Below the pieces are notes generated by a model, which was given only the letters and a program-made list of their open reading frames with translations, made no database searches and was not told the origin of the DNA. The position numbers and the translations under genes were made by a program. Source: Candidatus Oxydemutatoraceae bacterium (GTDB taxonomy: Bacteria; Pseudomonadota; Gammaproteobacteria; Poriferisulfidales; Oxydemutatoraceae). Taken from it: a DNA stretch of 64,000 nt. Every line of letters starts with the position of its first letter. Positions within the stretch are counted from its first letter, which is position 1. Below are positions 27,181-64,000 of the stretch, piece after piece. The stretch covers positions 1 to 64,000 of the forward strand of contig OZ244779.1 of the NCBI GenBank assembly GCA_965219575.1. Direction: 5' to 3'.

Positions 27181-27215
27181 TTGGAAATCTAGAACCGTAC
27201 TTGTGCAGATACGCA

Positions 27216-27508
27216 GCGACTGTTGAAAAAGTGCCGTTCTGTATGAACTCAACCGCTTGCGCCATGAATTTATAATAACCACCAAGCCGTAGGGGCAGAC
27301 CTGTGTGTCTGCCCTTAAGTATCGTCCAGAATAACCGTAACTGCTTGCGCCGGATGGTTTTGGTTTACATAAATTGGGTGGATGAATGTATAAATCGTGC
27401 CGACCAACGCGCTACGGGCAGAACAGAGCCGCCGATTGAGCCGGTAGGTCAATCGGCAATTTATATAAGTCCGCCCCTACGGTTCGTGGATACTTTTTCA
27501 ACAGCCCC
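27216..27508. mobile_element. MITE copy A (GGGGCTGTTGAAAA-type TIRs), 5-bp TSD ACGCA
   Basis: GCGACTGTTGAAAAA...TTTTTCAACAGCCCC; ACGCA at 27211-15 and 27509-13; internal GTAGGGGC REP-like palindromes. Confidence 0.8.
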
Positions 27509-27513
27509 ACGCA

Positions 27514-27562
27514 GCGACCACCCCGTCAGGCTGCGCCTGCCACCCCTCCGAAGGAGGAGAAT
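27514..27562 (+). repeat. Dispersed hairpin repeat (CCACCCCGTCAGGCTGCGCCTGCCACCCCTCC..GGAGGGGAAT family), the MITE host
   Basis: Near-identical copies at 40383-40431 (reverse), 49944-49992 and from 63964; shorter variants at 39216-39260, 39276-39300, 40764-40788, 49644-49666, 63662-63684. Confidence 0.8.
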
Positions 27563-27884
27563 GGTGCATGTGCGGTGACAGAGAATTTGACACAAGCGGT
27601 TTTTAACGGGATTTGACGGGATTTGGCGGTATTGCTTGCTTTCCGAGCGCGAAAGAAGTCTTGTGTGCTGTCACTGGCTCGCGACGGAGAATCAATGACT
27701 TACGTCACGAACTCGCAACTATAATTTGCTGGGATTCAAGGTTGTAAATAAGGTTTAGCCTTTGTTTAATTAGCTTTCAAAGGATTATTGAATGTGTATT
27801 TAACATAACGCTAACTCGGAACTAACTCGCAACTTTAAACTTTGTACAAAAACGGCACTTTTGTACAAGTAATGTCCTGCTATT

Positions 27885-28370
27885 TTAAGCTAAAGGCAGG
27901 CTGATAAATCGGGCGATAATCTCCTCAATTTCACGGCGACCTTCGTTTGATAATCCGAGAAACGGACGCGGCGGAATATCTCCCCAAGGAATAGGACGAC
28001 CGTGCTTATCACTACCAAAGCTACCTCTCCCTGCACCAAACTGCTGTGTGGCTGCGTAGGTAACATTAGTGCCTGCGACGGCATAATCTTTACCGAAGGC
28101 TGATGTGATACTATTTGCGAGCCGACCTGTTTGTTGTAGCTTTTGCCCCGGCCAGTAGCCGGATTTCTCGCGCTGTTTGATTGTCGTATCCGACAATGGC
28201 ACCCATGCCCCGCCTTCCGGTGCTTGTTCGGACTGAAAGGCTTCCTCAATATTATCTACCAACACGCCAGCGATCGCTTGCATTGCAGGTGATAGGTCGT
28301 CACCGCGACGCGCCAGAAAGTTTAATGCTTGCAGTGCCTTCTTGTCTTTGATTTTGATGTTTATTTTCAT
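27885..28370 (-). CDS. Phage virion morphogenesis protein (Mu gpG-like)
   Basis: FQSEQAPEGGAWVPLS, LQQTGRLANSI, GTNVTYAATQQFG, IPPRPFLGLS. Confidence 0.9.
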   Translation of the reverse strand: MKINIKIKDKKALQALNFLARRGDDLSPAMQAIAGVLVDNIEEAFQSEQAPEGGAWVPLSDTTIKQREKSGYWPGQKLQQTGRLANSITSAFGKDYAVAGTNVTYAATQQFGAGRGSFGSDKHGRPIPWGDIPPRPFLGLSNEGRREIEEIIARFISLPLA

Positions 28371-28488
28371 TGTGGTATACTCCTAGTGTGTGGCAAGCAA
28401 ATGGCCGGATGAAATTAGGTTAGGCTTTAAGTTCATTCGGCTACGGCAAGCACCTAGCTGTTATGTGAGATCCCGCTTGCCACGCACC

Positions 28489-29367
28489 CTAATCATTTTT
28501 ATAAAGCAAAGTTCCCTCTCGCTGATTGTCTGCATAGTTAGCATCTGCTGGTATAGCGTTCCAAAAAACACTTGCATCTGTATTCTCTCGGGCAATTACT
28601 AGCATATTTTTTTCACCTCTAAATAATTTAATAAACCGGCGGCGAAAACTGCCATCAGTATATTCAGTCAACCAAATTTCACTTGGGTTAGCCAATGTAG
28701 GGAGAATGAAGTTAGCATACCTTTCTCGGGCATCCGATCGTTTTCCAGATATATATTCTAATCCTTCCTCGCTGATAATAACTGGTTCTAGCGGTGTTTG
28801 AATGTTGCGAAAGTCGTTTTTTTTACCAAGCACAACCTCTGCAATTTGAGCATGAGCTAGAGTGGCTGACTCTGCTCTAGGCAATAGCTTAGGAGCTTCT
28901 ACGAAGGCAGAGTTTGGAAGCTCTTTCACACTAGATAACCCGTAGCTTTTATATTTTTTTTGACCGGGTATTATTCTGGCAACACCTTTGCCACGACCGC
29001 CGACTTGATCGGGCAATGCGCCGAGCTTATCCCACAAAGCCCACCTAGCACCGGGGTTATAATCAAAGCTCACATCAGGTGCCTCTATGAAGGTTTTGCC
29101 TAACGCATCTCTACCCCGATACCTAACAGATAGTTGGGTTAGTGCTTCGCCTGTATATTTATCAACGCCGACTTCTTGAGTGAAGGTCTCCAGATGTCCT
29201 TCACTCGTGTCAACTTTCAATCCGCGAGATTTAAGTTGTCGCTCGGTTAGTGTCCGCACACGACACCGGCAGTTCCAACCGTTAGGCGGATAGAAAGTAT
29301 CCCAGAACGGATCGTCAAAGCGGAAAACTTTGCCGTGTAGTCGGCGGTGCGCCGGGCGAGTGCGACA
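28489..29367 (-). pseudogene. 5'-truncated Mu gpF-like minor head protein with C-terminal PBECR-like nuclease-fold domain
   Basis: In frame upstream of the track ORF I read [36 protein letters not shown] (MuF signature); N-terminal half and start are missing; C-terminal [19 protein letters not shown]...QREGTLLY. Confidence 0.8.
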
Positions 29368-29624
29368 TCCAGATAATTGGCCGCAATTAAAACACTATTA
29401 AAGCTATTTTACATAAACTACCTATACAAAGCTGAAAATAGTTGCACAAAATTGCATTTAGTTGCAAATTCTCTGTCACCCTACAGTGCACTCCTATACA
29501 TGTCGGTTAATCGGCGGTTCTCTCTCAAGAAAATACCGTTAGTCGGTTATTAGCGACCATTCGTCGGTATTCCGAAACTGATCCGTCTAAATGCGGCAAA
29601 GTAGCATATTTTACGGAGATACGA

Positions 29625-30296
29625 ATGACTATCAAACACTGGCCGGACAAGGAGAGACCGCGCGAGAAACTACTCGCACACGGACCCGAAAATTTATCCG
29701 ATGCAGAACTACTGGCAATTTTACTGAATTCGGGAACTTCCGGAATGTCGGCACTCGACCTTGCCCGTCAATTACTAAAGACCTTCGGAAGCCTACGGGC
29801 GGTAACCGAAGCGGACAAAAAAGATTTATGCCTCAACAAAGGGGTGGGCGATGTTTGTTATACGCGCCTGCAAGCTGCCTTAGAAATTACCAGACGGACG
29901 CTGATGGAGTCTATGAAGAAAAAAGATATGGTTGCCAGCCCCGAGCGAGCGCGTAAATACTTAACCCTAAAGATGCGCAATTATCCCTACGAAGTTTTTG
30001 CCTGCTTATTTCTCGACAACCAGCATCGCGTCATCGCCTTTGAGGAACTATTTCGCGGCACCATAGACGGTGCAAGTGTGCATCCCAGAGAAGTTGTCAA
30101 GCGCACTCTGCACTATAACGCAGCAGCGATTATTTTGGTTCATAACCATCCTTCGGGATCGAGCGAACCTTCTCATGCCGACCGTCATATCACCGAGGAA
30201 CTAAAAAATGCATTGGCATTGATCGATGTGCGGATACTCGATCACTTCGTGGTCGGTGAGAAAATAACATCGTTCACCGAGTCTAATTTACTTTGA
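29625..30296 (+). CDS. radC: RadC/JAB-domain protein
   Basis: [38 protein letters not shown]. Confidence 0.95.
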
Positions 30297-30411
30297 GAAT
30301 ACACCAAACAAGTACCTGTATTTATCTATTTTAAGCAGATTACACAAAACGAGGGATCTCTATACTATAATAGGCTTTTATATCCCCTTTGATACTACAA
30401 AAATTAAAATT

Positions 30412-30888
30412 ATGAGAAAAACACCGATAACCAAATTAGGGGCGGAAAGGCTCAGAGAAGAATTAAAACACCTCAAAACCGTAGAACGGCGAAAAATAAT
30501 CGCAGCGATTTCAACCGCACGTGAGCACGGAGACCTTAAAGAAAACGCCGAATATCACGCAGCACGCGAACGCCAAAGTTTTATAGAAGGACGCATCAAA
30601 GACATAGAATTCTGTCTTTCCGCAAGCGAAATTATCGATATCACAAAATTAAAACATAATAACAAAGTAGTATTCGGGGCAACGGTCAGACTATACGATA
30701 CGGATGCCGAAGCAGAATGCACATACCAAATTGTAGGGGAAATAGAAGCCGATATTAAGCAAAATAAAATATCCGTGACCTCGCCTTTAGCACGGGCGAT
30801 GATCGGGAAATCGGAAAGCGATAGTATTGTCGTCGAAACACCGAGTGGTAAAAAAACATACAAAGTTTTAGAATTAAATTACGTCTAA
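30412..30888 (+). CDS. greA: Transcription elongation factor GreA
   Basis: [28 protein letters not shown]. Confidence 0.97.
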
Positions 30889-31090
30889 ACCGAGTCGAAA
30901 GTAATCGGCCGTGAGATTACTTATCGCATAACAGTTCGGCTTGTTTTAGTCTCTATCAATACACTTTATCCTTTTTTTGGTACCGCTCGGCACTTAGCCC
31001 GAGACATACGGCCTCTATAGCCCCAAAATATGGCAAGTTGTCCTCGAGACCAATTTTTCGCATATCACGATCTAAAAACTATTAACGCTT

Positions 31091-31780
31091 ATGAAGATAT
31101 TTAGTAATAACATATTCTCCGGACATTGTCCGGTTTGTTTATCTGCCACCGAGCGCACAGGCTTGTGTGAAAATTGTTTAGCGAGTCTAATTCAACCGAG
31201 GCATCGTTGCCGTATTTGTCTTGCGCCGATCGAACGGCAAGCGGGTAATATCTGTATTAACTGTTCGGCGGGTGTGCCTTTCGATCAGGTTGTTGCACTC
31301 GCTCGTTATACTCCCCCCTTGAGCGATTTGATTTGCAGATTGAAATACCGCAATCACATTTATCTAGCTAAAGTTCTCGGTATATTGCTCTCAAATCATA
31401 TAAAAAAGCACCGACAGACACTGCCCGAATTACTCGTTGCGGTACCGCTACACAAACAACGCATACAACAACGAGGCTTTAATCAAGCCGTAGAAATTGC
31501 ACGCACGGTGTCCGCCGAACTAAACTTAAAAACAGATTTTCGGTGCATCGAGAAATCCAAATCAACCCCTTTACAAACCACGCTCAATTCGCATCAACGC
31601 CGGAATAATCTAAAAGGTGCTTTTCGTCTACGCCACTCGATATATACGAAATCTATTGCATTACTCGACGATGTGATGACCACCGGCGCAACCGTATCGG
31701 AAATCGCGTCGTTATTGAAAAAAGCGGGGGTACGTCGTGTCGAGGTTTGGGTTCTGGCAAGAACCTCTCCTTCGTCTTAG
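31091..31780 (+). CDS. comF: ComF family amidophosphoribosyltransferase-like protein
   Basis: Double zinc ribbon, VPLH, RGFNQA, LLDDVMTTGAT. Confidence 0.9.
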   Translation: MKIFSNNIFSGHCPVCLSATERTGLCENCLASLIQPRHRCRICLAPIERQAGNICINCSAGVPFDQVVALARYTPPLSDLICRLKYRNHIYLAKVLGILLSNHIKKHRQTLPELLVAVPLHKQRIQQRGFNQAVEIARTVSAELNLKTDFRCIEKSKSTPLQTTLNSHQRRNNLKGAFRLRHSIYTKSIALLDDVMTTGATVSEIASLLKKAGVRRVEVWVLARTSPSS

Positions 31781-32634
31781 TTGAATAAATCTATAAAAAG
31801 TCCGACGAATACGACCATGCCGAAATAGTTATTATTGTTAAATGCCCGCAAACACAATTTCGGAGATCTATTTTTGATAAGGTATTGTTGATATACCGAA
31901 AAAATGGTTGCGATGGCCAAGCCACCGTAGTAAAAGCCCCCTAGTGCCTTCAAATAACCTGCGATGAACAAGAACACGAGTACCGACAACTGGAATACGG
32001 CAATCAGTGACCGATCGTACTTGCCGAACAGTAGTGCCGAAGATTTTACGCCTATCGCTTTGTCGTCGTGACGATCGGCCATCGCATACATTGTATCGTA
32101 AGCAATAGACCAGCAAACACCGGCTGCATATAATAACCAACCCTCTAAAGACGGCAATGCGTTAGTTTGGGCAGTGTACGCCATCGGTATCGCCCAACCA
32201 AAAGCCATACCTAGATGCGCTTGGGGCAAAGAATGTATACGCTTCATAAATGGATAAGATATCGCTAAGAACAGTGCAACTATAGACATATATACGGTTA
32301 GTCTGTTGGTTTGTATGACCAAAAACAAAGCCAAAACCAATAACACGATAAATAAAATAATCGCTTCCGATGGTGAAACACGACCCGAGGCGATAGGACG
32401 ATTTTTAGTTCTGGCAACCAGAGGATCTATTTTTCGATCTACATAGTCGTTGATAACACATCCTGCCGAGCGCATCAGTATCACGCCGGTAATGAATATC
32501 AATAATATCCATTGATCGGGAAAACCGCCGGCGGCAAACCACAAAGCCCACAAAGTCGGCCACAACAACAAGTAAATGCCGATTGGGCGGGAAAAACGCA
32601 TCAGTATTAAATAATTTTTGATACGCTCACCCAT
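31777..32634 (-). CDS. ubiA: 4-hydroxybenzoate octaprenyltransferase
   Basis: RPIGIYLLLWP, RSAGCVIND..DR..D, YPFMKR, YDTMYAMADR.DD. Confidence 0.96.
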   Translation of the reverse strand: MGERIKNYLILMRFSRPIGIYLLLWPTLWALWFAAGGFPDQWILLIFITGVILMRSAGCVINDYVDRKIDPLVARTKNRPIASGRVSPSEAIILFIVLLVLALFLVIQTNRLTVYMSIVALFLAISYPFMKRIHSLPQAHLGMAFGWAIPMAYTAQTNALPSLEGWLLYAAGVCWSIAYDTMYAMADRHDDKAIGVKSSALLFGKYDRSLIAVFQLSVLVFLFIAGYLKALGGFYYGGLAIATIFSVYQQYLIKNRSPKLCLRAFNNNNYFGMVVFVGLFIDLFN

Positions 32635-32671
32635 TATGAAAGTACCATTTTCTACAGTGACACAACCGGCA

Positions 32672-32802
32672 CCGCTGTTAAAAATGTATTAAATGTTCAT
32701 ACAACTGCAACAAATACCGTACTACACGGCGTTACACCGACCGGTTCAGAGGATGATTTAATAATCCCTCGCAACGGTTTATGGAATACTTTTTCAATAA
32801 CC
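32672..32802. mobile_element. Degenerate relic of the same MITE family
   Basis: GCTGTTAAAAATGTATT at ~32674; TATGGAATACTTTTTCAA at 32780-32797 matches the end of copies B and E over 18 nt. Confidence 0.45.
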
Positions 32803-32821
32803 TTGCTATTTTCGTATGAAG

Positions 32822-35041: not shown

Positions 35042-35189
35042 CCGATTATTTCAAAAAGTAAAAATTAAATGCCTATGATAACACGATATGATGTGGCATG
35101 GAGACAAATAACGCAATGATAGTGGCAGAAGTTAGAGAAGGAAAGTGATGACGCAGATTCTATATATTTATAAAAATCTTGCCGCCCGA

Positions 35190-35276
<87 letters not shown>

Positions 35277-35299
35277 GAAAAACCGTTGCAAAGTTTAAC

Positions 35300-36625: not shown

Positions 36626-36628
36626 CCG

Positions 36629-37567: not shown

Positions 37568-37681
37568 ATGATGTCCCTCCCTTGAAGATTGGATCAAACC
37601 CTAACCACCCTAAAACGGAAGCAGTATAATATGATAAAGAACTGAACGATTAAAGTTTATTAAAAGGAGGATTTACGAACC

Positions 37682-39184: not shown

Positions 39185-39419
39185 ATACATTATCTGTGCA
39201 AGTACGGCACCGGTTATTCCCCTCCTCTGGAGGGGTGTTGGACGCAGCGTATCTGCACAAGGTGCAGTGCCGGTACATTCCCCTCCTTCGGAGGGGTGGC
39301 CTATGCATTTTGCAATGCATGCGATTAGCAATCATGTCGAGGTTCTGAACAAAGTCACGCCGATTGACCTACTGGTTCAATCGGCGGTTCTATTCAGCCT
39401 TACGGGGTGGTTGTGTAGT

Positions 39420-39711
39420 GGGGCTGTTGAAAAAGTATTTCATAGAGTGGTAGGGGCGGACTTGCATGTCCGCCCGTAACGTATCATGTTTGCACGATTA
39501 ACGCGTTCACCCATTAATATTATGGAAACCATTATTTGTTGGCGCAAGCGGTTGGTGTCGTGCAGAACGGTACTTAAGGGCAGACATCAAAATTGCCGAT
39601 TGACCTACCGGTTCAATCGGCGGCTTTATCCTGCCCCTACAGGTGGTTTGCAAATATTCACGGCGCAAAGCGGTTGCAATTTTGCAAACACAGTACTTTT
39701 TCAACAGCCCC
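39420..39711. mobile_element. MITE copy B, 5-bp TSD GTAGT
   Basis: GGGGCTGTTGAAAAA...TTTTTCAACAGCCCC; GTAGT at 39415-19 and 39712-16. Confidence 0.88.
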
Positions 39712-39807
39712 GTAGTATCTGCAACGGTTAATTCCCCTCCTACGCATGTCGGTATGTTCAGCTTATAGTACGGAGACTAGTATACATATAATAATCTATT
39801 TTTCAGG

Positions 39808-40355
39808 ATGCACGATTTATGTAAAAACCCGAGATTAATAGGGCAAGTTCTCTTTGTCGTTTTTCTACTCGTGGTCTTAGGCGCACAAGTTGTGTCGGCA
39901 CAGACAACCTTGCCAGATTGCACTAATTCCTTATTAGACTTGTCCGATTACAATAAAGATGATGGTGATCTTGTAGATCAAGCTGTGGATATTGACAAGG
40001 ACGGCGACGGTTTGATAGAAATCTGTGATTTGGAGGGACTGTACGCATCATAGGAAGTGACAGCGTAGGCAGTTTGGTTGGTTCCAATAGCGGTTCCAGC
40101 ACCAACAGCTATGCGACAGGTTTTGATGATGCCTTATTCGGTGCTTCTGCCGGTTCTCCCACCATCACGAACAGTTCAACGAAAACCGAAATGGAACTGC
40201 AAACACCGACAACGGCAACCGGGATATATAGCGACTGGAGTACCGAAGTATGGGATTTCGGCACTTCGAACGATCTCCCGACACTCAAAGATGTGCCGGA
40301 AATAGAACTTATCCGAATCCGAACCAAAGTGTTTTTAGAGGGTCCCCTCCAATAG
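39808..40355 (+). pseudogene. Collapsed relic of a GLUG-repeat surface protein, paralog of 50013..62429
   Basis: Signal peptide plus DIDKDGDGLIEICDLEGL, then a frameshift to VGSLVGSN..NSYATG, LQTPTTATGIYSDWSTEVWDFGT and terminal IRIRTKVFLEGPLQ. Confidence 0.85.
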
Positions 40356-40436
40356 CCTATCCTTTAATATCTATAGCGGTCAATTCCCCTCCTTCGGAGG
40401 GGTGGCAGGCGCAGCCTGACGGGGTGGTCGCGTCGT

Positions 40437-40734
40437 GGGGCTGTTGAAAAAATACCGTTTTGCACGATTGTAACCGCTTGCGCCATTAAATTTACGATAA
40501 CCACTGAGTTGTAGGGGCAGACTAACATGTCTGCCCTTCAGTACCGTTCTGTACAAACTCAACCGCTTGCGCCATTTGGTTTTGGTTTCCATAAATTGGA
40601 TGAATGAATGTATAAATCATGCCGGCCAACGCGTTACGGGCGGACATGCCAGTCCGCCCCTACGGGTGGTTTGCGAATATTCACGGCGCACAGCGGTTAG
40701 ATTTGTGCGATGTCCACACTTTTTCAACAGCCCC
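40437..40734. mobile_element. MITE copy C, 5-bp TSD GTCGT
   Basis: TIRs as in copy B; GTCGT at 40432-36 and 40735-39. Confidence 0.88.
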
Positions 40735-40823
40735 GTCGTGTCTGCATAAGTATAGTGTTGATACATTCCCTTCCACAGGAGAGGAATTGTACGTTTCTGC
40801 ACATTTCCGGTCACTCGGTGGTT

Positions 40824-44979: not shown

Positions 44980-45053
44980 GGGCCTGTAGCTCAGTCGGTC
45001 AGAGCGGGGGACTCATAATCCTTAGGTCGCAGGTTCGAATCCTGCCGGGCCCA
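44980..45053 (+). tRNA. tRNA with CAT anticodon, probably tRNA-Ile2 (lysidine); no encoded CCA
   Basis: GGGCCTG/CGGGCCC acceptor stem, anticodon loop CTCATAA, GTTCGAATC; position after rpoD matches ileX-type tRNAs. Confidence 0.88.
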
Positions 45054-45054
45054 T

Positions 45055-45263
45055 GGGGCTGTTGAAAAAGTGCGGCATCGTACGAATCCAATCACTTGCG
45101 CCATTTGGTTTTGGTTTCCATAAATTGGATGGATGAATGTATAAATCGTGTAGGCACAACGCGTTACGGGCGGACATGCTAGTCCGCCCCTACGGGTGGT
45201 TTGCAAATATTCACGGCGCAAGCGGTTACGGTTGCACGCTGACGATACTTTTTCAACAGCCCC
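45055..45263. mobile_element. MITE copy D at the tRNA 3' end (apparent 4-bp CCAT duplication)
   Basis: GGGGCTGTTGAAAAA...TTTTTCAACAGCCCC flanked by CCAT on both sides. Confidence 0.85.
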
Positions 45264-45418
45264 CCATTTATTCTTTATGATGCTTAGACAGCCGACATGC
45301 TAGTCCGCCCCTACGGGTGGTTTGCAAATATTCACGGCGCAAGCGGTTACGGTTGCACGCTGACGATACTTTTTCAACAGCCCCCCATTTATTCTTTATG
45401 ATGCTTAAACAACCGACA
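45173..45418. repeat. 121-bp tandem duplication (MITE right end plus flank)
   Basis: GACATGCTAGTCCGCCCC...TTTATGATGCTTA repeated at 45173 and 45294. Confidence 0.9.
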
Positions 45419-49530: not shown

Positions 49531-49685
49531 TAAATGGTTATCCTTGTTGTTTATCAATCGGAATATTCATTATAGGTGAACCTATTATAGGTGCAATTAC
49601 GGGGGGCTGTTGAAAAATTATCCACGAACTGTAGGGAAGGTACATTCCCCTCCTGCGGAGGGGAATTAGCTGATGCAGAACCTTG

Positions 49686-49938
49686 GGAGCTGTTGAAAAA
49701 GTATTCCATAGAGTGGTAGGGGCGGACTTGCATGTCCGCCCGTAACGCGCTGGTTGGCACGATTTATACATTCATTCACCTGATTTATGGAAACCAAAAC
49801 CATACGGCGCAAGCGGTTACGGCTGTGCAGAACAGCACTTAAGGGCAGACACACAGGTCTGCCCCTACAGGTGGTTTGGATAATTATGTGGCGCATAGCG
49901 GTTGAATTCGTGCAGAACAGTACTTTTTCAACAGCCCC
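49686..49938. mobile_element. MITE copy E, 5-bp TSD CCTTG (an orphan terminus lies upstream at ~49603-49635)
   Basis: GGAGCTGTTGAAAAA...TTTTTCAACAGCCCC; CCTTG at 49681-85 and 49939-43. Confidence 0.88.
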
Positions 49939-50012
49939 CCTTGACAACCACCCCGTCAGGCTTCGCCTGCCACCCCGCCACAGGAGAGGAATGGATGTGT
50001 TATCGATGATCT

Positions 50013-56000: not shown

Positions 56001-59000
56001 CACACCGGCTATCTGCACTTGTAGCATTTGCGGCACATTCTCAAGCGGTTCTCTACCTTGATTAGGTATCACAGTGCCGTCGCTATATTTAAGCGCAGGG
56101 TATTGTTCGGATGTGCCGAAATCCCACACATCGGTACTCCAGCTTCTGTATATCCCGGTTGCCGTTATAGGTGATTGTAGTTGTGCCGTGGTCTTGCCTG
56201 CGCCGCCACGACCGGCACTCGTCTCACTGCCACTAGTCTCTGTATCCCAATAGCTGTCTGTAACACTACCCCCGTCTCTACCACGACCAACTAAACCTCC
56301 CACATTGTCATTCCCCATAACAAAACCTGTCGCATAGCTGTTCGTGATATCACCATCATTCAAACCAACTAATCCACCTATGGCAAAATAAGAAAAAGCT
56401 CCTGTAACAGAACCCGTCGCATAGCTGTTCATAACACTACCGTATAAACGACCGACTAAACCGCCTACCTCGGCAAACGAAGAAGTCGCCGTAGCAGAAC
56501 CCGTCGCATAGCTACTCGTGATAGCACCATTACTTAAACCAACTAAACCTCCCACATAATCAGCCCCCTTAACGGAACCTTTTGCATAGCTGTTCGTGAT
56601 AATGCTATCACCACGGCCTACTAAACCTCCCACATAAAGATCTCCGGTTACATTTATATTAAGTAGACCAATATTATTGATTTTAGACCGGCGTCCGGTA
56701 TAACCGAACAACCCTATATTAGCGGAGGAGGCTCTGTTAATTATAAGGTTGGCAATGGTATGGCCGCTGCCATCAAAAGTTGCCCCGAAAGCATTAGAAG
56801 AGGAATTTCCGATCGGCGGCCAGCCTGCACCTGTAGTCCATCTGCGTTTGTTTGCCGATGCATTACGATAGCTTGCATCGTCGTTGAAATCCAAATCTCT
56901 GGTTAGCTCATAGCCTTTGCAACCGGTGGCAGGACAACCTAAGGTAATCTTTGTTGCCCCTCCGCTTGCTTTATAGCCCGTGCCGTCCATCTGATAACGC
57001 ATTGCGTTCAATCCTTCCAAGTCGCATATCTCTATCAGACCGTCGTCATCTTGATCTATGTCCGTTGTGCTACAAGATACCAGAACAACTATGCTGACGG
57101 GAATATCTATGCTCTCGTAGACTACGGCTTGTGAGATGATCTCTTCGCTGTAGCCTTGCCCGTCGGTGTAACTCATGACCACACGATACTGGACAGTACC
57201 GAAAACATTCTCCGGAATGGTATACGCCTCGCTCGTGCCGGCAGGCACATTTATCCATGCGGTTGCGGTACTCTCTCTGCTTTGCCATTGATAGCCGATA
57301 GTGCTAACGCCGCCGTCGGGGTCGCCACTCAAATCTATAGCCGGGGCGGTAAGCACCCTCTCGTTCAGACTCGGTGCGCCCAATGCCGCAACCTTGCCAT
57401 TGTTGCGCTTGGCTATGGTGATGACTACTTGTTGTGCAGTACTGCCTACATCGCTAATCACATCCAGCATGATTGCTAGATTAACGGTGTTTGCATCAGC
57501 AGACACATAATCTTCCGGCACCTCAATCGTCACACTGCTTCGGGTTGTAGGCTCTATCAGCAAGTCTCCGTCCGATATTTGTGTCCAGCGATAACGCAAT
57601 GGAATGTTACTCGTATTGTCTGAAGAAGATGCGGTTAGTGTAATGCTATCACCTTCGTTAATAGCACCCGCTGGCACACCAGCAATCTCTACTTGCGACA
57701 TTTGTAGCACATCCTCAGGCTGCACTCTACCTTGATTAGGCATAAATGTGCCGTCGCTATATTTGAGTGCCGGATATTGTTCGGATGTACCGAAATCCCA
57801 TACTTGAGTACTCCAGCTACTATATATCCCGGTTGCCACCGTAAGTGATTGTAGTTCTATCGTAGTCTTACCCTCACCACCGGCACTCGTCATTTGTCCA
57901 CTAGTCCATCTATCCCAATAGCTACTCGTAATGGCATCAGCATCATCATTAAGACCAATTAAACCGCCTATTGAACTAGACCCTGAAACCTCACTCGTCG
58001 CATAGCTGTTCGTGATACTACCACCATAACTATTGCCGACTAAACCGCCTACAGCAGACATTCCTTCAATGGAACCCATTGCATAACTGTCGATGATGCG
58101 ACCATGATTGGAACCGACTAATCCGCCTGCTCCTAGTGCTCCTCCTCTAATCAAAACCACCGCATAGCTATTCGCAATGCTACCATTACTATTCAAACCA
58201 ACCAATCCACCTGTCCTGCCATAATTCCCTCTCACAAAACCCGTCACATAGCTGTTGCTAATCACACCTTGATTATTAAATCCAACTAAACCACCAACTG
58301 CCCAATTCGCACGAACATTCACATTGATTAAACCAACACCATTAATCCTTGCCTGACTTCCTACCCTACCGAAAAGACCAACTTCATTGGTTGTTAAAAA
58401 TCTATCTATATTCAGATTAGAAATAGTATGACTGTTGCCTTCAAAAATCGCATTGAAGGGCGTAGTATTCGTACTGACGGATGACTGATATTGCCTATAC
58501 TCGGCATGTCCTAGCGGTGACCAGCCGTCGCCCGTAGTCCAGACAACCTTGTTAGATGTTGAACTATAGCTGTTAACATCATTAAAGTCTAAATCTCTAG
58601 TGAGCTCATAACCTATGCAACCACCATTGGGACGACAACCCATAGTAATCACCGGCGCAGACTCATTTGCTTTATAGCCCGTGCCGTCTAAGCGATAGCG
58701 GATTGCGTTCAATCCCTCCAAGTCGCATATCTCTATCAGACCGTCGTCGTCTTGGTCTATATCGGTTGTTCCACAGGATGTTAGGCTTGCTATTTCTATA
58801 AGAGAATATCTGCTTTCATAGACTACGGCTTGCGATATAACTTCTTCGCTATAGCCTTGCCCGTCGGTATAACTCACGACCACACGATACTGGACGACAC
58901 CGCCGGTATACTTCGGCGCGGTATACGCCTCGCTCGTGCCGTCAACTACATTCGCCCATGCGGCTTCAGTGCTTTCTCTGCTTTGCCATTGATAGCCGAT

Positions 59001-62000
59001 AGTGCTAACGCCGCCGTCGGGGTCGCCACTCAAATCTATAGCCGGGGCGGTAAGCACCCTCTCGTTCAGACTCGGTGCGCCCAATGCCGCAATCTGCCCG
59101 TTGTTGCGTTTGGCTATGGTCATTACTACTTGTTGTGTGGTGATGCCTACATCACTAACCGCTTTCAATATTAACGTTATATCACTACTGTTTGCATTTG
59201 CCTCAACATAATCTTCCGGCACTTCAAGCCATATCATGCTCAAGGTCGTAGAATCTGTCCGTAAAACTTTGCCCGAGGTTTGCTCCCAGCGATAATGCAG
59301 TGGAATATCATTGCTCATACTGTAATCAGAAAATGCCTCAAGCATAATCTGATTCCCCTCGGCAACAGCATCCGTCGGCACACCGGTTATCTCCACGCCC
59401 AGCTTCTGTGATAAATCCGGTCGCCCTCTAGGCTGATTGGACATCACCGTGCCGTCGCTATATTTAAGTGTCGGATACTGACTGTTGGTGCCGAAATCCC
59501 ACACATCGGTACTCCAGCTACTATATATCCCGGTTGCCACCGTAAGTGATTGTAGTTCTATCGTAGTCTTACCCTCACCACCGGCACTCGTCATTTGTCC
59601 ACTAGTCCATCTATCCCAATAGCTACTCGTAATGGCATCAGCATCATCATTAAGACCAATTAAACCGCCTATTGAACTAGACCCTGAAACCTCACTCGTC
59701 GCATAGCTGTTCGTGATACTACCACCATAACTATTGCCGACTAAACCGCCTACAGCAGACATTCCTTCAATGGAACCCATTGCATAACTGTCGGTGATGC
59801 GACCATGATTGGAACCGACCAATCCACCTGCTCCTAGTGCTCCTCCTCTAATCAAAACCACCGCATAGCTATTCGCAATGCTACCATTACTATTCAAACC
59901 AACCAATCCACCTGTCCTGCCATAATTCCCTCTCACAGAACCCGTCACATAGCTGTTGCTAATCACACCTTGATTATTAAATCCAACTAAACCACCAACT
60001 GCCCAATTCGCACGAACATTCACATTGATTAAACCAACACCATTAATCCTTGCCTGACTTCCTACCCTACCGAACAGACCAACTTCATTGGTTGTTAAAA
60101 ATCTATCTATATTCAGATTAGAAATAGTATGACTGTTGCCTTCAAAAATCGCATTGAAGGGCGTAGTATTCGTACTGACGGATGACTGATATTGCCTATA
60201 CTCGGCATGTCCTAGCGGTGACCAGCCTGCGCCCGTAGTCCAGACAACCTTGTTAGATGTTGAACTATAGCTGTCGTCGTCGTTGAAATCTAAATCTCGG
60301 GTTAGCTCATAACCCGTGCAACCACCATTAAGGCGACAACCTATGGTAATCACTGGCGCAGACTCATGTGCTTTATAGCCCGTGCCGTCCATCTGATTGC
60401 GGATTGCGTTCAGTCCCTCCAAGTTGCATATCTCTATCAGACCGTCGTCGTCTTGGTCTATATCGGTTGTTCCACAGGATGTTAAGCTTGCTATTTCTAT
60501 GAGAGAATATCTGCTCTCGTAGACTATGGCTTGCGAGATAACTTCTTCGCTGTAGCCTTGCCTGTCGGTATAACTCACGACCACGCGATATTGGACAGTA
60601 CCGAAAACATTTCCCGGAATAGTATACGACTCGCTCGTGCCGGCAGGCACATTGACCCATGCGGTTCGGGTAGTTTGGCTGTTCTCTCTACTTTGCCATT
60701 GATAGCCGATAGTGCTAACGCTGCCGTCGGGGTCGCCATTCAAATCTATAGCCGGGGCGGTAAGCACCCTCTCGTTCAGACTCGGCTCACCCAATGCGGT
60801 AATCTGACCGTTGTTGCGCTTGGCTATGGTGATTTCTATCTGCCGTGTAATGTTACCCTCATCACTCATTGCTATCAGCATGACTGCTAAATTGATGGTG
60901 TTTGCATCGGCAGACACATAATCTTCCGGCACCTCAATCGTCACACTGCTTAAAGTTGTAGGTTCTATCAGCAAAGTTCCGCCTGAGGTTTGCGACCAGC
61001 TATAATTCAATGAGATGTCGCTCGCATTGTCTGGAGAAGATGCCGTTAATGTGATTCTATCACCTTCGGCAACAGCACCTGTCGGCACGCCGGCGATCTC
61101 TATTTGTGGCATTTGCGGTATATATAGCGACTCTCTAGGTTGATTGGGCATTACCGTGCCGTCGCTATATCTAAGTGCAGGATATTGCGCGGATGTACCA
61201 AAATCCCATACTTCGGTACTCCAACTTCTATATATCCCAGTTGCCGTCGTGGGTTCTTGTAGTGCTAGTGTTGTTTTACCTCCGCCACCGGCACTCGTCT
61301 CTCGCCCGCTAGTCTGCTTATCCCAGTAGCTGTTCGTGTAAGTGCCTGTACGACGCCAAGGTTTCGTACCAACTAGGCCGCCTATTCTTCTATGCCCTGA
61401 AACAGAACCTGTCGCATAGCTGCTCGTGATAGTACCTCCATAATTATAGCCGACTAAACCGCCTATATCAGAATACCCTTTGGCAGAACCTGTCGCATAG
61501 GTGTTTGTGATGAAACCAGCATCATTGGAACCGACTAAACCGCCTGCTTGATGTCTTCCTGTGACAAAACCCGTCGCATAGCTGCTCGTGATAGTACCTT
61601 CATAATTATAGCCGACTAAACCGCCTATATTATAACGCTGTCCCTTGACAGAACCTGTCGCATAGCTGCTCGTGATAGTACCTTCATGATTATAGCCGAC
61701 TAAACCGCCTATATAATGACCCCCCTCAACAGAACCCGTCGCATAGCTGCTCGTGATAGTACCTTCATAATTATAGCCAACCAAACCGCCCACATCAACA
61801 GCTCCAACCACATCTACATTAAATAAACCAATGTTTCTAATTTTAGATTGCTTCACTACATAACCGAATAAACCAATGTCCATCCACTTCACATTAGTGA
61901 ACCAAGCTCCACGAGTGCGGAGAGAAGTGGGGAGAGATCTGTTAATCATGAGGTTAGAAATGGTATGACCATTGCCGTCAAAGGTTGCCATAAAAGGCCT

Positions 62001-62429
62001 GTTTCTGTTATGGGGGTAGTAGTAACCTAAATTATACCCAATCGGCTCCCAGCCTGCGCCCGTAGTCCAGACAACCTTGTTTGCCGTTGTGTTGTAGCTG
62101 TTGTCGTCGTTGAAATCTAAATCTCGGGTTAGCTCATAACCCGTGCATCCACCATCAAGGCGACAACCCACAGTAATCACCGGCGCAAACTCGCCTGCTT
62201 TATAACCTGTGCCGTCCAACTGATAGCGGATTGCGTTCAGTCCTTCCAAGTCGCATATTTCTATCAGACCGTCGTCGTCTCGGTCTATGTCGGTCAAAGT
62301 GCAGGGTGCCGTTTGTGCCAGAGCAGATTGTGAACCCATAGCAATAGCTGAGGCTACAACCAGTATACAGGAGGCTTGCAGAAATCTGCTTTTGCTTTTA
62401 ACTTTGAAATCAGGAAATGCCGTTTCCAT
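50013..62429 (-). CDS. Giant secreted GLUG-repeat/Ig-like surface protein (putative adhesin), 4138 aa
   Basis: Signal peptide (..SALA/Q); six DxDxDDDGLIEIC-GYEL-(GGLVG)n-WDFGT modules interleaved with PKD/Ig-like pairs; cadherin-like region; terminal IRIRAKVFLEGFLQ. Confidence 0.88.
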   Translation of the reverse strand: METAFPDFKVKSKSRFLQASCILVVASAIAMGSQSALAQTAPCTLTDIDRDDDGLIEICDLEGLNAIRYQLDGTGYKAGEFAPVITVGCRLDGGCTGYELTRDLDFNDDNSYNTTANKVVWTTGAGWEPIGYNLGYYYPHNRNRPFMATFDGNGHTISNLMINRSLPTSLRTRGAWFTNVKWMDIGLFGYVVKQSKIRNIGLFNVDVVGAVDVGGLVGYNYEGTITSSYATGSVEGGHYIGGLVGYNHEGTITSSYATGSVKGQRYNIGGLVGYNYEGTITSSYATGFVTGRHQAGGLVGSNDAGFITNTYATGSAKGYSDIGGLVGYNYGGTITSSYATGSVSGHRRIGGLVGTKPWRRTGTYTNSYWDKQTSGRETSAGGGGKTTLALQEPTTATGIYRSWSTEVWDFGTSAQYPALRYSDGTVMPNQPRESLYIPQMPQIEIAGVPTGAVAEGDRITLTASSPDNASDISLNYSWSQTSGGTLLIEPTTLSSVTIEVPEDYVSADANTINLAVMLIAMSDEGNITRQIEITIAKRNNGQITALGEPSLNERVLTAPAIDLNGDPDGSVSTIGYQWQSRENSQTTRTAWVNVPAGTSESYTIPGNVFGTVQYRVVVSYTDRQGYSEEVISQAIVYESRYSLIEIASLTSCGTTDIDQDDDGLIEICNLEGLNAIRNQMDGTGYKAHESAPVITIGCRLNGGCTGYELTRDLDFNDDDSYSSTSNKVVWTTGAGWSPLGHAEYRQYQSSVSTNTTPFNAIFEGNSHTISNLNIDRFLTTNEVGLFGRVGSQARINGVGLINVNVRANWAVGGLVGFNNQGVISNSYVTGSVRGNYGRTGGLVGLNSNGSIANSYAVVLIRGGALGAGGLVGSNHGRITDSYAMGSIEGMSAVGGLVGNSYGGSITNSYATSEVSGSSSIGGLIGLNDDADAITSSYWDRWTSGQMTSAGGEGKTTIELQSLTVATGIYSSWSTDVWDFGTNSQYPTLKYSDGTVMSNQPRGRPDLSQKLGVEITGVPTDAVAEGNQIMLEAFSDYSMSNDIPLHYRWEQTSGKVLRTDSTTLSMIWLEVPEDYVEANANSSDITLILKAVSDVGITTQQVVMTIAKRNNGQIAALGAPSLNERVLTAPAIDLSGDPDGGVSTIGYQWQSRESTEAAWANVVDGTSEAYTAPKYTGGVVQYRVVVSYTDGQGYSEEVISQAVVYESRYSLIEIASLTSCGTTDIDQDDDGLIEICDLEGLNAIRYRLDGTGYKANESAPVITMGCRPNGGCIGYELTRDLDFNDVNSYSSTSNKVVWTTGDGWSPLGHAEYRQYQSSVSTNTTPFNAIFEGNSHTISNLNIDRFLTTNEVGLFGRVGSQARINGVGLINVNVRANWAVGGLVGFNNQGVISNSYVTGFVRGNYGRTGGLVGLNSNGSIANSYAVVLIRGGALGAGGLVGSNHGRIIDSYAMGSIEGMSAVGGLVGNSYGGSITNSYATSEVSGSSSIGGLIGLNDDADAITSSYWDRWTSGQMTSAGGEGKTTIELQSLTVATGIYSSWSTQVWDFGTSEQYPALKYSDGTFMPNQGRVQPEDVLQMSQVEIAGVPAGAINEGDSITLTASSSDNTSNIPLRYRWTQISDGDLLIEPTTRSSVTIEVPEDYVSADANTVNLAIMLDVISDVGSTAQQVVITIAKRNNGKVAALGAPSLNERVLTAPAIDLSGDPDGGVSTIGYQWQSRESTATAWINVPAGTSEAYTIPENVFGTVQYRVVMSYTDGQGYSEEIISQAVVYESIDIPVSIVVLVSCSTTDIDQDDDGLIEICDLEGLNAMRYQMDGTGYKASGGATKITLGCPATGCKGYELTRDLDFNDDASYRNASANKRRWTTGAGWPPIGNSSSNAFGATFDGSGHTIANLIINRASSANIGLFGYTGRRSKINNIGLLNINVTGDLYVGGLVGRGDSIITNSYAKGSVKGADYVGGLVGLSNGAITSSYATGSATATSSFAEVGGLVGRLYGSVMNSYATGSVTGAFSYFAIGGLVGLNDGDITNSYATGFVMGNDNVGGLVGRGRDGGSVTDSYWDTETSGSETSAGRGGAGKTTAQLQSPITATGIYRSWSTDVWDFGTSEQYPALKYSDGTVIPNQGREPLENVPQMLQVQIAGVPAGAIDEGDSITLTASSPSNASNIPLSYRWSQTSGGDLLIEPTTLSSVTIEVPEDYMPNDASAVNLAIMLNVISNVGSTTQQVVITIAKRNNGKIAALGAPSLNERELTAPAIDLSDDPDGGGSTIGYQWQSREGSRTAWVNVPAGKNEAYTIPENVFGTVQYRVIMSYTDGQGYSEEVISQAMVYEREDFSQPVISIANPTSCEAMDIDQDDDGLIELCNLEGLNAIRYQLDGTGYRQSTLQTKITAGCPATGCKGYELANNLDFNDFDSYSSTTNKVIWTTGSGWQPIGAWDNPFTAIFKANRYRISNLMINRPSSGEMGLFGRIAEPARIEGVGLINVSVRGNWGNGSLVGHNSRGVISNSYATGRVMGGDSVGGLVGDNYGTITNSYTNVSVSGGSYIGGIVGCNFGGATITNSYTVPRISRGSSTDVGGILGFNSPNNSGVFNSYWDIDVSGISGGGFGLGLTTIQLQSPIAPGSTQTEIYYGWDSEVWDFGTFEQYPVLKYRDNTVIPEQPEEQPGIRQMPQVEIVGVPSGAIGEGERITLTASSQSSASLSYRWTQISDGDLLIEPTTRSSVTLAVPKDYVPADANSVNLTIALDVISDVGSTAQQVVITIVTIAKRNNGRISALGAPSLNERELEAPTIDLNGDPDGGIGSIDYQWQSRESTGTAWVNVVDGTSEIYTAPKYTRGIVQYRVIVSYTDGQGYNEEVASDFSAYQGLDLLQGLSVEVIGVPTEAVAEGERITLTASSQGSEINVPLSYRWTQTSGKALFITIMTQASVILEVPEDYVAPDANTANAELTLEASSYVGIITRQIEITIAKRNNGQIATLGAPSLSDRVLTAPAIDLSGDPDGGVGTIGYQWQSRESTATAWINVPAGTSEAYTAPKYTRDVIQYRVIVNYTDGQGYNEEVASDFLAYRGLDLLQGLSVEVIGVPTEAVAEGERITLTASSQNSEINVPLSYRWAQTSGKALFITTTTQASVILEMPEDYVATDANTANAMLTLEASSYVGIITRQIEITIAKRNNGQIAALGAPSLNDRVLTAPAIDLSGDPDGGVGTIGYQWQSRESVGTAWTNVPAGTSEAYTAPKYTGGIVQYRVIVSYTDGQGYSEEIASDFSAYRGKTNTAPSIDVPSDNSSIRLLSGQTTRVSVVISEVDAEDIVTLTIAQIPTMTEIVLVEPPGILLGADLGETRTAEFELTALQPGSLRLRLTATDDSGTLTASAAAVELSIEIEALPLTSCGTTDVDQDDDGLIEICSLEGLNAIRYAPSGSGYRENESAIKSTVGCGEGVCRGYELSNDLDFNNDDHYQDIANKSTWTTGAGWKPLSLITRFEGNDNTISNLMINRELENDIGLFGHASGGGTKINGVGLIDVDIGGRRAVGGLVGRMGGGGIVSNSYVTGDVIGHSQTGGLVGSSLHSSISDSYAIVYVEAIGTANLSSFVGGLVGSLLASRVSGSHAIGSVKGLGRVGGLVGSNIGANGHIINSYAIANVEGSNNSVGGLIGSNNGISGSVVNSYATGKVVGVNVVGGLVGNNERNYTIRDSYSFADVRANFSVGGLAGVHVGRIINSYAVGRVEGNLGERGIGGLVGVKSEDATITASYWDKTTSERAQSAGGEGKTTALLQSPTTTTGIYSSWDLEVWDFGTATQYPALKSGAGTLMPDQRIGLSGLSILTTEEIPYLFNTEVFNYRLMIANEADTIKLLPTATPGVTDIGIMSDNGFSESVLSGNQSSPISLAASGMTMITVQVEFASQASRTYHLTISRAEQSVAVQLVGMNQPFEYVIPRNTVRGSSDGMQGYTVMRMPSWLDHAESESGLMFSGTPEADYLEDSLEEMLEVKINNADGTTQIVCLILQIDSPTTGTTVLEELPDGVLQLNDRLSDDNGIEEKTHVWEHCPVGSDAFNELEGVNGMRYTLPEGPNSAPGTAYRVRTTVVDGLGKRSEHTTQIELQGQVSEESQPPIIDEMSTGSKEQRSIRIRAKVFLEGFLQ

Positions 62430-62505
62430 AGCAGAGGAGGAAAGGGCTAATGCTAACTGTTCTTTTATTAGACAATCTTTGCAACATGCATTCTCTCCTA
62501 ATCAC

Positions 62506-63108
62506 TTAGTTGGGTTGATATACGAAAGGAGAAGCTAGACCCACGGTCTCGGCACATTGAAACTCCTCGTTATGGCTATAATTGATATATTCGGATTGAT
62601 GAACGGTTGCTGCAAAACCGGGGGCAATCGTTAGCGGATGGTTCTCCACCAACACATGTTTGCCTTCGGCTCCTTCTAGCGCATTTACCTTGACTTCACC
62701 GTAATCGCCGATGTTCATGGTTTTTTGCTTGTCGGTATAAGTGATGTCTACTTTTGCCGAATGTACGCCTTTAATCTCTCCGACCAATCCGGCAATAACC
62801 GCAGGGTGACCTCCGACTGTGCCACCCCAAATCCTCTGTAATGCTTCTGCTTGTTTCGCATCGGCTCGCTCGTCTATGTAAAGCGTGACCTGCCAGCCGC
62901 CTTCGGTCATAAGACCCGGAGCATATAGCCAAAGACCTACATTAAGCCCCGATAAATCCACATCATCCATGTAGCCTTTTTCAATCTGCCAACCCACCAT
63001 CGCGTTACAGAATCCTTGGGTGGGGGGTCTTAAAAATATACAGGGACAGACTAAATCACAGTTGCATGATTCAAAGTATTGACCTTCTAGTTTCCAATCG
63101 TTAGCCAT
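62506..63108 (-). CDS. DUF1326 family protein
   Basis: W.LEG.YFESCNCDLVCPC, YIDERA..Q..AL..I..G..GG; ATG 63108 has an AGGAGG RBS. Confidence 0.85.
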   Translation of the reverse strand: MANDWKLEGQYFESCNCDLVCPCIFLRPPTQGFCNAMVGWQIEKGYMDDVDLSGLNVGLWLYAPGLMTEGGWQVTLYIDERADAKQAEALQRIWGGTVGGHPAVIAGLVGEIKGVHSAKVDITYTDKQKTMNIGDYGEVKVNALEGAEGKHVLVENHPLTIAPGFAATVHQSEYINYSHNEEFQCAETVGLASPFVYQPN

Positions 63109-63239
63109 CGCAAACCTCCTCCTTACTAAATTCGTTAAATTATACTCTTTTAGGAAAAATTTCGCAACCAAAGTCAGAGCAAAAAACCTCCGCAATCCCT
63201 TTATTTATGCTATGATACGCTCTTTGTGGAGAGATCTTA

Positions 63240-63464
63240 ATGTCTAGAATTTGTCAAATAACGGGGAAAAAGCCCTTGAGCGGTAATAATGTGTCTCATG
63301 CGCATAATAAAACGCGGCGGCGTTTTTTGCCCAACCTGCAAACCCATCGCTTTTGGGTGGAGAGTGAAAAGCGATGGATCAGCTTGCGAGTATCGTCTAA
63401 AGGATTGCGCTTGATTGATAAAAAGGGAATAGACGCAGTCCTCGCCGATATCAAAAAACGATAA
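63240..63464 (+). CDS. rpmB: 50S ribosomal protein L28
   Basis: [29 protein letters not shown]. Confidence 0.98.
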
Positions 63465-63479
63465 GCCAAGGAGATTATA

Positions 63480-63638
63480 ATGCGAGAGAAAATAAAACTT
63501 GTATCCAGTGCCGGTAGCGGCCATTTTTACACCGCAACCAAAAACAAAAAGACCGCAGGCACCAAAAAACTGGAACTGAAAAAATTCGACCCGACCGTCC
63601 GCAAGCATGTAATCTATAAAGAAGCCAAAATCAAGTAA
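63480..63638 (+). CDS. rpmG: 50S ribosomal protein L33
   Basis: Manual translation [24 protein letters not shown]...[22 protein letters not shown]; follows rpmB. Confidence 0.96.
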
Positions 63639-63731
63639 TAACATCGCCTGTTGAAACCATTATTCCCCTCCTCTGAAGGGGAATGTACCGTTTCTACCGT
63701 TCGTGGATACTTTTTCAACAGCAGACACACT

Positions 63732-63953
63732 GGGGCTGTTGAAAAGGTATTGGTAGCGCAAAAATCCAACCGCTTGCGCCATGAATTTATAATAACCACC
63801 AAGCCGTAGGGGCAGTATAAAGCCGCCGATTGAGCCGGTAGGTCAATCGGCAACTCTGATGTCTGCCCATAAGTACCGTTCTGCACGACACCAACCGCTT
63901 GCGCCAACAAATAATGGTTTCCATAAATTGGATGGATGAATGTATAAATCATG
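63732..63953. mobile_element. MITE copy F, right end deleted (an orphan terminus lies upstream at ~63694-63722)
   Basis: GGGGCTGTTGAAAAG start and shared internal modules; fuses via TGC into TGCAGATACGACACAACCACCCC. Confidence 0.75.
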
Positions 63954-64000
63954 CAGATACGACACAACCACCCCGTCAGGCTGAATAGAACCGCCGATTG

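Follow-up and report, generated by a model that had tools for sequence, protein, structure and literature searches.

Miniature elements, probably derived from an IS1182-type insertion sequence, at one position of a dispersed repeat in a sponge symbiont

How does a small non-coding element come to lie repeatedly at one position inside another dispersed repeat, and which enzyme placed it there? The question is raised by the first 64 kb of the genome of a sponge symbiont, Candidatus Oxydemutatoraceae bacterium (assembly GCA_965219575.1, contig OZ244779.1, a single contig of 2,369,097 bp, or 2.37 Mb), where elements with the termini GGGGCTGTTGAAAA and TTTTCAACAGCCCC sit within a host repeat of about 80 bp. 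Below, "the window" is this whole stretch of 64,000 nucleotides and G000 is its source genome. An earlier note on this DNA had read the elements as miniature transposable elements with inverted repeats (MITEs), placed by independent site-specific insertions and driven by a transposase encoded elsewhere. We followed up that reading in G000 and four congeners (G001 to G004; five genomes of one genus), sampling the sister genomes by pattern counts and about 60 fetched loci. We consider it likely, taking the explanation as a whole, that the elements are MITEs and deletion derivatives of an IS1182-type insertion sequence (IS), that their position-exact target at the joint between repeat units is lineage-specific, and that the sister species use as target the loop of a repetitive extragenic palindrome (REP).

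A fixed position at the joint between repeat units

Element ends, scored genome-wide as GGGGCTGTTGAAAA with at most two mismatches, number 513 in G000 (255 left and 258 right), and adjacent left-right pairs less than 600 bp apart define 163 complete copies, all small, non-coding and 107-513 bp long, with length classes near 167, 209, 253 and 297 bp. Terminal inverted repeats, GGGGCTGTTGAAAA(AGT), are present at both element ends, and the window holds 13 matches to the termini (≤2 mismatches) against 0.47 expected from shuffles. Reading the sequence bore out the four complete elements that the earlier note had placed in a shared host context (copies A, B, C and E; Table 1). Its fifth element was real too and is not truncated as claimed: the body is interrupted and the right end lies beyond the window. 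The note had missed a sixth copy (D), a solo left tip and an end remnant. Only the outer ~17 nt are common to all copies, the bodies being mosaics of a few modules; the 209-bp class, for example, is the 298-bp class without the stretch between two direct repeats. The bodies carry inverted pairs of GTAG-headed, GC-rich hairpins, GTAGGGGC(G/A)GAC...GTC(C/T)GCCCC, with the features of REPs as set out by Nunvar et al. (PMC2817692). Copy C folds as a single long hairpin (z = -7.4) in which 15 tip bases are paired.

The host unit, of about 79-80 bp, consists of two small hairpins followed by ...GTGCAGAY, and units form tandem arrays with a 5-base spacer; the target is the joint at which a unit end (...GTGCAGAY) meets the next unit start (RCRACCACCCC...). 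The earlier note had described the site as the entry to a hairpin repeat; it is the joint between units, for which no fold of its own is predicted (z = 0.59). The host core ACCACCCCGTCAGGC occurs 179 times in G000 (≤2 mismatches), and in 86 of these occurrences a MITE end stands at the identical upstream position. Under the junction consensus GCAGAY-N5-RCRACCACCCC, 230 of the 513 ends stand directly against half of a junction (177 at the commonest offset), while separate strict patterns, used for spacing and for cross-genome comparison, place 115 of 289 ends at the junction. To the left of the joint, the strict cases show repeat body (24), MITE inner module (24), a second hairpin repeat (1) or other sequence (20). 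G000 also holds 59 empty junctions (≤1 mismatch), and the intact target that the earlier note had reported near 63952 is present in the window (Table 1).

Because end and junction half are 5 bp apart in 45 of the 58 ends to one side and 42 of the 57 to the other (strict patterns), the evidence supports a position set by the flanks and not by the duplicated 5-mer, as had been proposed. Of the complete copies, 41 are flanked by both halves of one junction, 54 by a half on one side only, 3 by two halves of the same kind and 65 by none; most complete copies (98/163) thus have a junction half next to one end or both, so that at the level of complete copies they do not lie mostly outside the host repeat, the outcome that the earlier note had named as refuting its reading. 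The 5-bp duplication around the 41 embedded copies is exact in 19, one base off in 10 and absent in 12. Twelve different 5-mers make up the 19 exact cases (ACGAC accounts for 7), a spectrum similar to that of the empty junctions, where ACGAC stands in 16 of 59, and within the window the duplications at copies A, B, C and E are all different, as had been noted. Relative to the host, the MITE runs one way in 20 embedded copies, the other way in 8 and could be assigned to neither in 13; copies A and E, already reported to be opposite, indeed have opposite internal orientations in identically oriented hosts. Every length class is present both at junctions and elsewhere. Distances between element bodies barely follow those between host flanks (Mantel test on k-mer distances, r = 0.11, reached by 191 of 2000 permutations), and the nearest element neighbour has the same 5-mer in 6 of 29 cases, compared with 17% over all pairs. 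Since the 5-mers vary as they do in empty junctions, both orientations occur, and element similarity does not track flank similarity, the results support many independent insertions and speak against the spread of one composite unit.

The junction is one of several landing places. Beyond the 230 ends given above, the remaining 283 of the 513 ends lie away from it, many at ANNT with a 4-bp duplication. The 65 copies that have no junction half comprise 26 flanked by 4-bp duplications, 5 by 5-bp ones and 34 by none; the 4-bp duplications are nearly all ANNT, most commonly ACAT or ATGT. Copy D, which follows tRNA-Met (44980-45053) directly, has an empty site in G001 and G003, which read ...GGGCCCAT|TTATT... 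where G000 reads ...GGGCCCAT-element-CCATTTATT...; the difference is exactly the element plus CCAT, which proves that this copy was inserted, and its target duplicated, once the nearest relative had split off. A third recurrent landing place is AATGT within the motif GGGTGACATTTCTACTTTGG, the terminal repeat motif of an element encoding a 443-aa protein with helix-turn-helix (HTH) and rve domains, where 17 MITE ends are found. That element lies at 752554-753882 of G000 and in seven more copies; its ends hold several copies of GGGTGACATTTCTACTTTGG, with MITEs at ATGT or ACAT.

The parent insertion sequence and its targets across the genus

A Pfam DDE_Tnp_1 search of the five genomes returned, in G001 and G004, a second group of matches about 120 nt inside MITE-like tips. 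These belong to an IS of 1,815 bp tip to tip, with ~17-bp ends, GGGRCTGTTGAAAAAGT, as in the MITEs, and one open reading frame (ORF) for a 576-aa transposase that matches DUF772 (PF05598, 2e-24), DDE_Tnp_1_6 (PF13751, 1.4e-18) and DDE_Tnp_1 (PF01609, 6e-8). The pairing of DUF772 with DDE_Tnp_1_6 is what we take to be the IS1182-family transposase architecture, in keeping with the likeness to IS5/IS1182-type ends seen earlier. Searched with the protein, G004 holds seven identical full-length copies plus variants, G001 four full-length copies (85-87% identity) plus split ones, G003 broken pieces with stop codons (65-78% identical) and G002 scraps. The supposition that the transposase is encoded elsewhere thus stands for the sister species, where it is intact; G000 itself keeps no intact form and a single 32-residue match with two stops. 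With this scrap as the sole trace, the G000 MITEs are orphans, and they would now be stranded without an enzyme. The elements are, in sum, small and non-coding, bear terminal inverted repeats, show a duplication where a relative has the empty site, and share their ends with an autonomous element.

Matches to the 17-nt tip (≤1 mismatch) number 360 in G000, 343 in G001, 5 in G002, 94 in G003 and 413 in G004, and there was none in 36 other genomes from the same family and order. Scans of metagenome contigs with a 23-nt tip and of viral contigs with an 18-nt tip gave three matches each, all single and in unrelated coding DNA, none being the element.

Other candidates for the parent were set aside on their ends. 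Two IS1595-type elements of G000 end in GGTACTTGACTAG... and GGGAATTATATAC..., unlike the MITE tips, and make 8-bp duplications; a single-copy IS1380-like element ends in CCCTAAATCCGC, and an IS3-like element in TGACGTT..., neither resembling the tips, so that the MITE does not pass for an IS1397-like, REP-targeting element of the IS3 family with TG...CA ends; the 443-aa rve element, TnpB and IS110 of G000 likewise lack them. A miniature element derived from Tn3 (GGGG ends, 5-bp duplication) was considered as well, and the Tn3-family transposase PF01526 is found in none of the five genomes. Thirteen ORFs beside solo ends or bracketed by tips, when run through Pfam, yielded 12 ordinary genes, one without a family and no parent transposase. 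Eight more were read as translations without a family search: three look ordinary, two are DNA methyltransferase-like, one is unnamed, and the last two are an IS1380-like gene and one like a REP-associated tyrosine transposase (RAYT), both later run through Pfam.

Where the IS is intact, its own copies mark a second target. Eleven of 12 IS copies in G001 and G004 have a 4-bp duplication, ACAT or ATGT, and one, in G004, a 5-bp duplication, AATAT. The REP stem GGGAGGGC/GCCCTCCC flanks nine of the 12 on both sides and two more on one side, with another tip opposite; the nine sit in GGGAGGGCT-AACAT...ACATG-CCCTCCC, which is the loop of the REP hairpin (GGGAGGGCTAACATGCCCTCCC) of these two genomes.

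Under the strict patterns, ends preceded by ANNT number 238/301 in G001 and 255/354 in G004, compared with 81/289 in G000 and 24/74 in G003. Occupied junction sides show the reverse, with 58 in G000 (24 empty junctions) and 17 in G003 (29 empty) against 1 in G001 (49 empty) and 0 in G004 (27 empty). G001 and G004 have an intact IS, many MITEs and many free junctions and make almost no use of them, whereas G000 and G003 use junctions heavily; because junctions are abundant yet almost unused in G001 and G004, junction targeting is special to the G000/G003 lineage. The broken IS of G003 itself sits in a junction, as GTGCACAT-ACGAC-IS-ACGCT-ACAACCACCCC.

A mechanism and the explanations that compete with it

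We envisage a transposase that would cut its target with a stagger of 4 or 5 bases and so leave the flanking duplication. In sister species with an intact IS, the IS and its MITEs would go mainly to ACAT or ATGT, duplicating 4 bp, as a rule where the REP hairpin found there has its 7-nt loop; in G000 and its nearest relative, insertion would have occurred repeatedly between ...GCAGAY and RCRACCACCCC... of the ~80-bp repeat, duplicating whichever five bases were present. The junction preference and the 5-base stagger may have been a property of the G000/G003 variant of the IS, since decayed, or of a lineage-specific helper. That a DDE transposase lineage has been naturally retargeted within one genus, from a REP loop (4-bp duplication, ACAT) to the joint of another repeat (5-bp duplication, free core), is a tentative suggestion, to which we give somewhat less than an even chance.

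Several observations weigh against the explanation that we prefer. The 12 embedded copies lacking a duplication, together with the 54 further copies that touch the repeat on one side only, mean that much later recombination between copies must be assumed. Empty alleles in sister genomes, which the earlier note had proposed to look for, exist for copy D in G001 and G003; none was found there for the window junction copies A, B, C, E and F, and junction copies offer no clean comparison of this kind because the intergenic regions have been rebuilt differently in each species. Four runs of public reads contain the region, assembled into short contigs that end wherever a repeat is reached, and none of these contigs bridges a site. 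The 5-mers flanking the G003 IS agree at only three of five positions. The five genomes hold no intact transposase of the junction-using lineage, and the association of enzyme with target is a correlation over two clades that are kin, from which we infer that enzyme variant and target are linked. For one enzyme to make staggers of 4 bp at ANNT and of 5 bp at the junction would be unusual, though one IS copy of G004 does have 5 bp. Finally, of the 137 MITEs that could be compared, 26 are at least 99% identical to a partner, which is odd where the enzyme is gone; such pairs fit recent activity or tandem duplication.

Specificity might reside outside the enzyme. Accessory proteins steer some transposons to one site, and here a single transposase could act everywhere while a host or accessory factor on the ~80-bp repeat, or a DNA shape imposed there, directs insertion to the junction in one lineage. 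A bound factor would be a reasonable way to fix a position that is not by itself a predicted hairpin, a stagger that differs between the two target types would fit a different target complex, and junctions do exist unused in G001 and G004. No candidate factor was identified, however, and the IS remnant of the junction lineage is only 65-78% identical to active copies, which left the enzyme ample room to differ; we regard steering by such a factor as unlikely, if well worth keeping in mind. The spread of one or a few ancestral insertions as a composite of repeat, MITE and repeat, through segmental duplication and recombination, is a far weaker contender. Repeats and MITEs do form tandem arrays in which neighbouring junctions often have the same 5-mer, ACGAC recurs in seven of the 19 exact duplications, and the 12 embedded copies without duplication would suit it. 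A composite would nevertheless have to produce 12 different duplicated 5-mers, both MITE orientations and every length class in junctions, with element and flank similarity uncorrelated by both measures given above, and it would also have to place a full-length IS remnant in a junction in G003; we judge it very improbable.

Last among the rivals, and the least credible to us, is mobilisation by an Rpn-like PD-(D/E)XK nuclease (PF12784, about 17 copies) or by a RAYT (3 copies). An outward-facing tip lies within 300 nt downstream at 7 of 13 Rpn loci, compared with 67 of the 971 remaining ORFs in the range of 250-600 aa; in G003 a junction is occupied by a tip-to-tip unit (locus L038) that holds an Rpn gene and has an ACTTC(G) duplication, and a 1,101-bp tip-to-tip unit containing a RAYT-like gene, with a GTCGT duplication, occupies one in G000. 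The inverted pairs of GTAG-headed hairpins in the MITE bodies are, moreover, like REPs as PMC2817692 presents them. Many Rpn loci, on the other hand, have a tip on one side only, no RAYT was found in G003 with the query used although that genome has 94 ends, and the RAYT flanks in G001 and G004 have no tip. Adjacency is also what one expects if the hairpins on either side of these genes serve as landing sites for tips. HUH tyrosine transposases, according to the same source (PMC2817692), make no such duplications. A conventional DDE transposase with exactly matching ends in the sister genomes explains both ends and duplications, and because this IS was found, the nuclease and the RAYT were reduced to a minor alternative. 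We read the tip-to-tip units as passengers between ends, or as tips that landed in gene-flanking hairpins, and not as the source of mobilising enzymes; the G003 Rpn unit looks like cargo carried between IS ends.

Neighbouring elements, known systems and significance

Both gene families have features of their own. The RAYT-like genes of G000 (Table 1) belong to PF01797 with HUH and Tyr motifs; two are intact and one is shortened by a MITE, the distance to a MITE tip is 218 nt for all three, and the one nearest the window, 2.4 kb past its end, is the content of the 1,101-bp unit. The query used had no match in G002 or G003. The Rpn-like family has 13 full-length loci in G000 (e.g., 433155-434093, 638467-639423 and 2047716-2048699) and often forms tandem clusters in the sister genomes; a second hairpin repeat, GCCGATTGANCCGGTAGGTCAATCGGC, lies 3' of many Rpn genes and is also nested in REP loops. 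Metagenome contigs scanned with a 44-nt arm of the Rpn unit gave no matches. On a contig of a Clostridium metagenome-assembled genome (L101), a PF12784-type relative (28% identity) lies between 68-nt inverted repeats (1122-1189 and 2395-2462) that are 87% complementary, a single case in which such genes may or may not be travelling in bounded units elsewhere.

Nesting is common around the elements. In copy F the second hairpin repeat occupies the loop of a REP-like hairpin, and the host junction interrupts the body at 63952; at 63790-63845 a 27-nt hairpin repeat (GCCGATTGAGCCGGTAGGTCAATCGGC) lies in the loop of the REP-like hairpin within the MITE, making three nesting levels. Seven IS110-family copies (PF01548 and PF02371) occur in G000 outside the window and, at the loci examined, lie at one position within the GTAG-headed REP hairpin of a MITE, whose left tip is 47-98 nt from the IS start; they are a second site-specific element, nested in the MITE. 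The spacer after tRNA-Pro (27181-27640 in the window; L046-L048 in G001, G003 and G004) is made up of repeat modules whose set differs among all four species, and the flanking genes there remain 85-95% identical, the intergenic regions being rebuilt fast. A short fragment between copies B and C (39724-40436) contains stop codons and the motif DKDGDGLIEICDLEGL; in its likeness to the beginning of the giant, repeat-rich surface proteins that G000 encodes, it is probably what remains of a gene. The giant proteins, with open frames of up to 16,069 codons in a family of 39 related long frames, are remarkable for a 2.4-Mb genome. An Rfam scan of the window found three tRNAs and nothing else.

Table 1. 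Positions of the elements, host sites and neighbouring features (window numbering, or G000 where marked)
Feature	Position	Strand	Details
Site A host halves	left TGCAGAT 27204-27210; right GCGACCACCCC 27514-27524	+	unit continues to about 27566
MITE copy A	27216-27508	+	293 bp; left tip with 2 mismatches (GCGACTG...); duplication ACGCA at 27211-27215 and 27509-27513
Site B host repeat	GGGGTGGTTGT 39404-39414; ATCTGCA 39717-39723	minus	
MITE copy B	39420-39711	+	292 bp; duplication GTAGT at 39415-39419 and 39712-39716
Site C host repeat	GGGGTGGTCGC 40421-40431; GTCTGCA 40740-40746	minus	
MITE copy C	40437-40734	+	298 bp; duplication GTCGT at 40432-40436 and 40735-40739
MITE copy D	45055-45263	+	209 bp; outside host repeat; duplication CCAT at 45051-45054 and 45264-45267
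Tandem duplication	45264-45384	+	121 bp; flank plus right part of copy D; second right tip at 45371-45384
Solo left tip	49603-49616	+	truncated MITE fused to host-repeat body; body end TGCAGAA (49674-49680) is the left half of site E
MITE copy E	49686-49938	+	253 bp; duplication CCTTG at 49681-49685 and 49939-49943; right host half ACAACCACCCC 49944-49954
End remnant	63709-63720		
MITE copy F	63732-64000 in window	+	right tip at genome position 64142, past the window end
Unoccupied host junction	63952-63974	+	TGCAGAT-ACGAC-ACAACCACCCC
RAYT-like gene (G000)	66437-67000	minus	
RAYT-like genes (G000)	1094898-1095461; 1743189-1743545		
IS110-family copies (G000)	883855-884832; 1306781-1307788; 1375613-1376620; 1384915-1385892; 1429207-1430214; 2071306-2072283; 2328296-2329303		
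Giant open frames (G000)	1637780-1685986; 1172259-1218938; 1688044-1734348; others		

The parent IS shares with the IS1182 family, e.g., staphylococcal IS1272, the DUF772 and DDE_Tnp_1_6 domains, a single ORF, short terminal inverted repeats and a length of 1.8 kb. IS1272 targets stem-loops and some members of the family target palindromes, according to PMC5678879, and the REP-loop targeting seen in 9-11 of the 12 IS copies of G001 and G004 is family-typical in this respect. IS1272 is described as replacing its target stem-loop without a duplication, whereas here a 4-bp duplication is made and the hairpin is kept; the junction departs further from the family, being no predicted hairpin and giving 5 bp, and in G000 the MITE progeny are all that survives. 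It is established that certain IS elements target REPs, and IS1397/ISKpn1, ISPsy8, ISPa11 and ISPpu9/10 resemble the MITE in choosing a position inside another dispersed intergenic repeat, as reported in PMC1525189. Those are autonomous elements of the IS3 or IS110 families, whereas here an IS1182-type element, chiefly through its MITEs, is at work and one target is a junction and not a REP loop. Paired REPs and their transposase (REPIN/RAYT systems) are also similar in their inverted pairs of GTAG-headed GC-rich hairpins and in a RAYT-like gene (PF01797) flanked by such hairpins. REPINs lack such terminal inverted repeats and target duplications; the MITE has 17-nt tips and duplications, which belong to the DDE element, and so is not, taken whole, a plain REPIN. 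Among the nested MITEs of plants, too, one small element inserts preferentially into another and is recognised through intact duplications. That plant preference follows a short motif (TA or TAA) common in the host element, in contrast to one fixed position with a free core. In the collection of open-access papers searched, with queries not aimed squarely at the point, we found no description of an IS1182-type MITE family with a position-exact target at a non-hairpin repeat joint, nor, within the same limits, of a free 5-bp core at such a target or of target and stagger having changed from one sister lineage to another. Our verdict is that this is a MITE of a known IS family whose target is itself new, lineage-specific and position-exact.

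Simple DDE transposons rarely choose their target to the exact position, an ability sought for genome engineering, and here two close lineages of one IS family have two different, very specific targets, with hundreds of natural insertions that can be read. If specificity lies in the enzyme, a comparison of active and broken copies would point to those residues of IS1182-type transposases on which stagger and the choice of target depend; if the retargeting is true, the ~80-bp repeat would have served as dispersed, harmless landing pads that absorbed about 40-45% of insertions before the enzyme died. The locus is also a clear case of MITEs outliving their transposase, with a parent traceable only through sister species. 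More broadly, it shows how a small symbiont genome tolerates hundreds of mobile copies with little damage to genes, as copies pile into other repeats and turn the sequence between genes into a nested patchwork of insertions (MITE, REP, hairpin and IS110).

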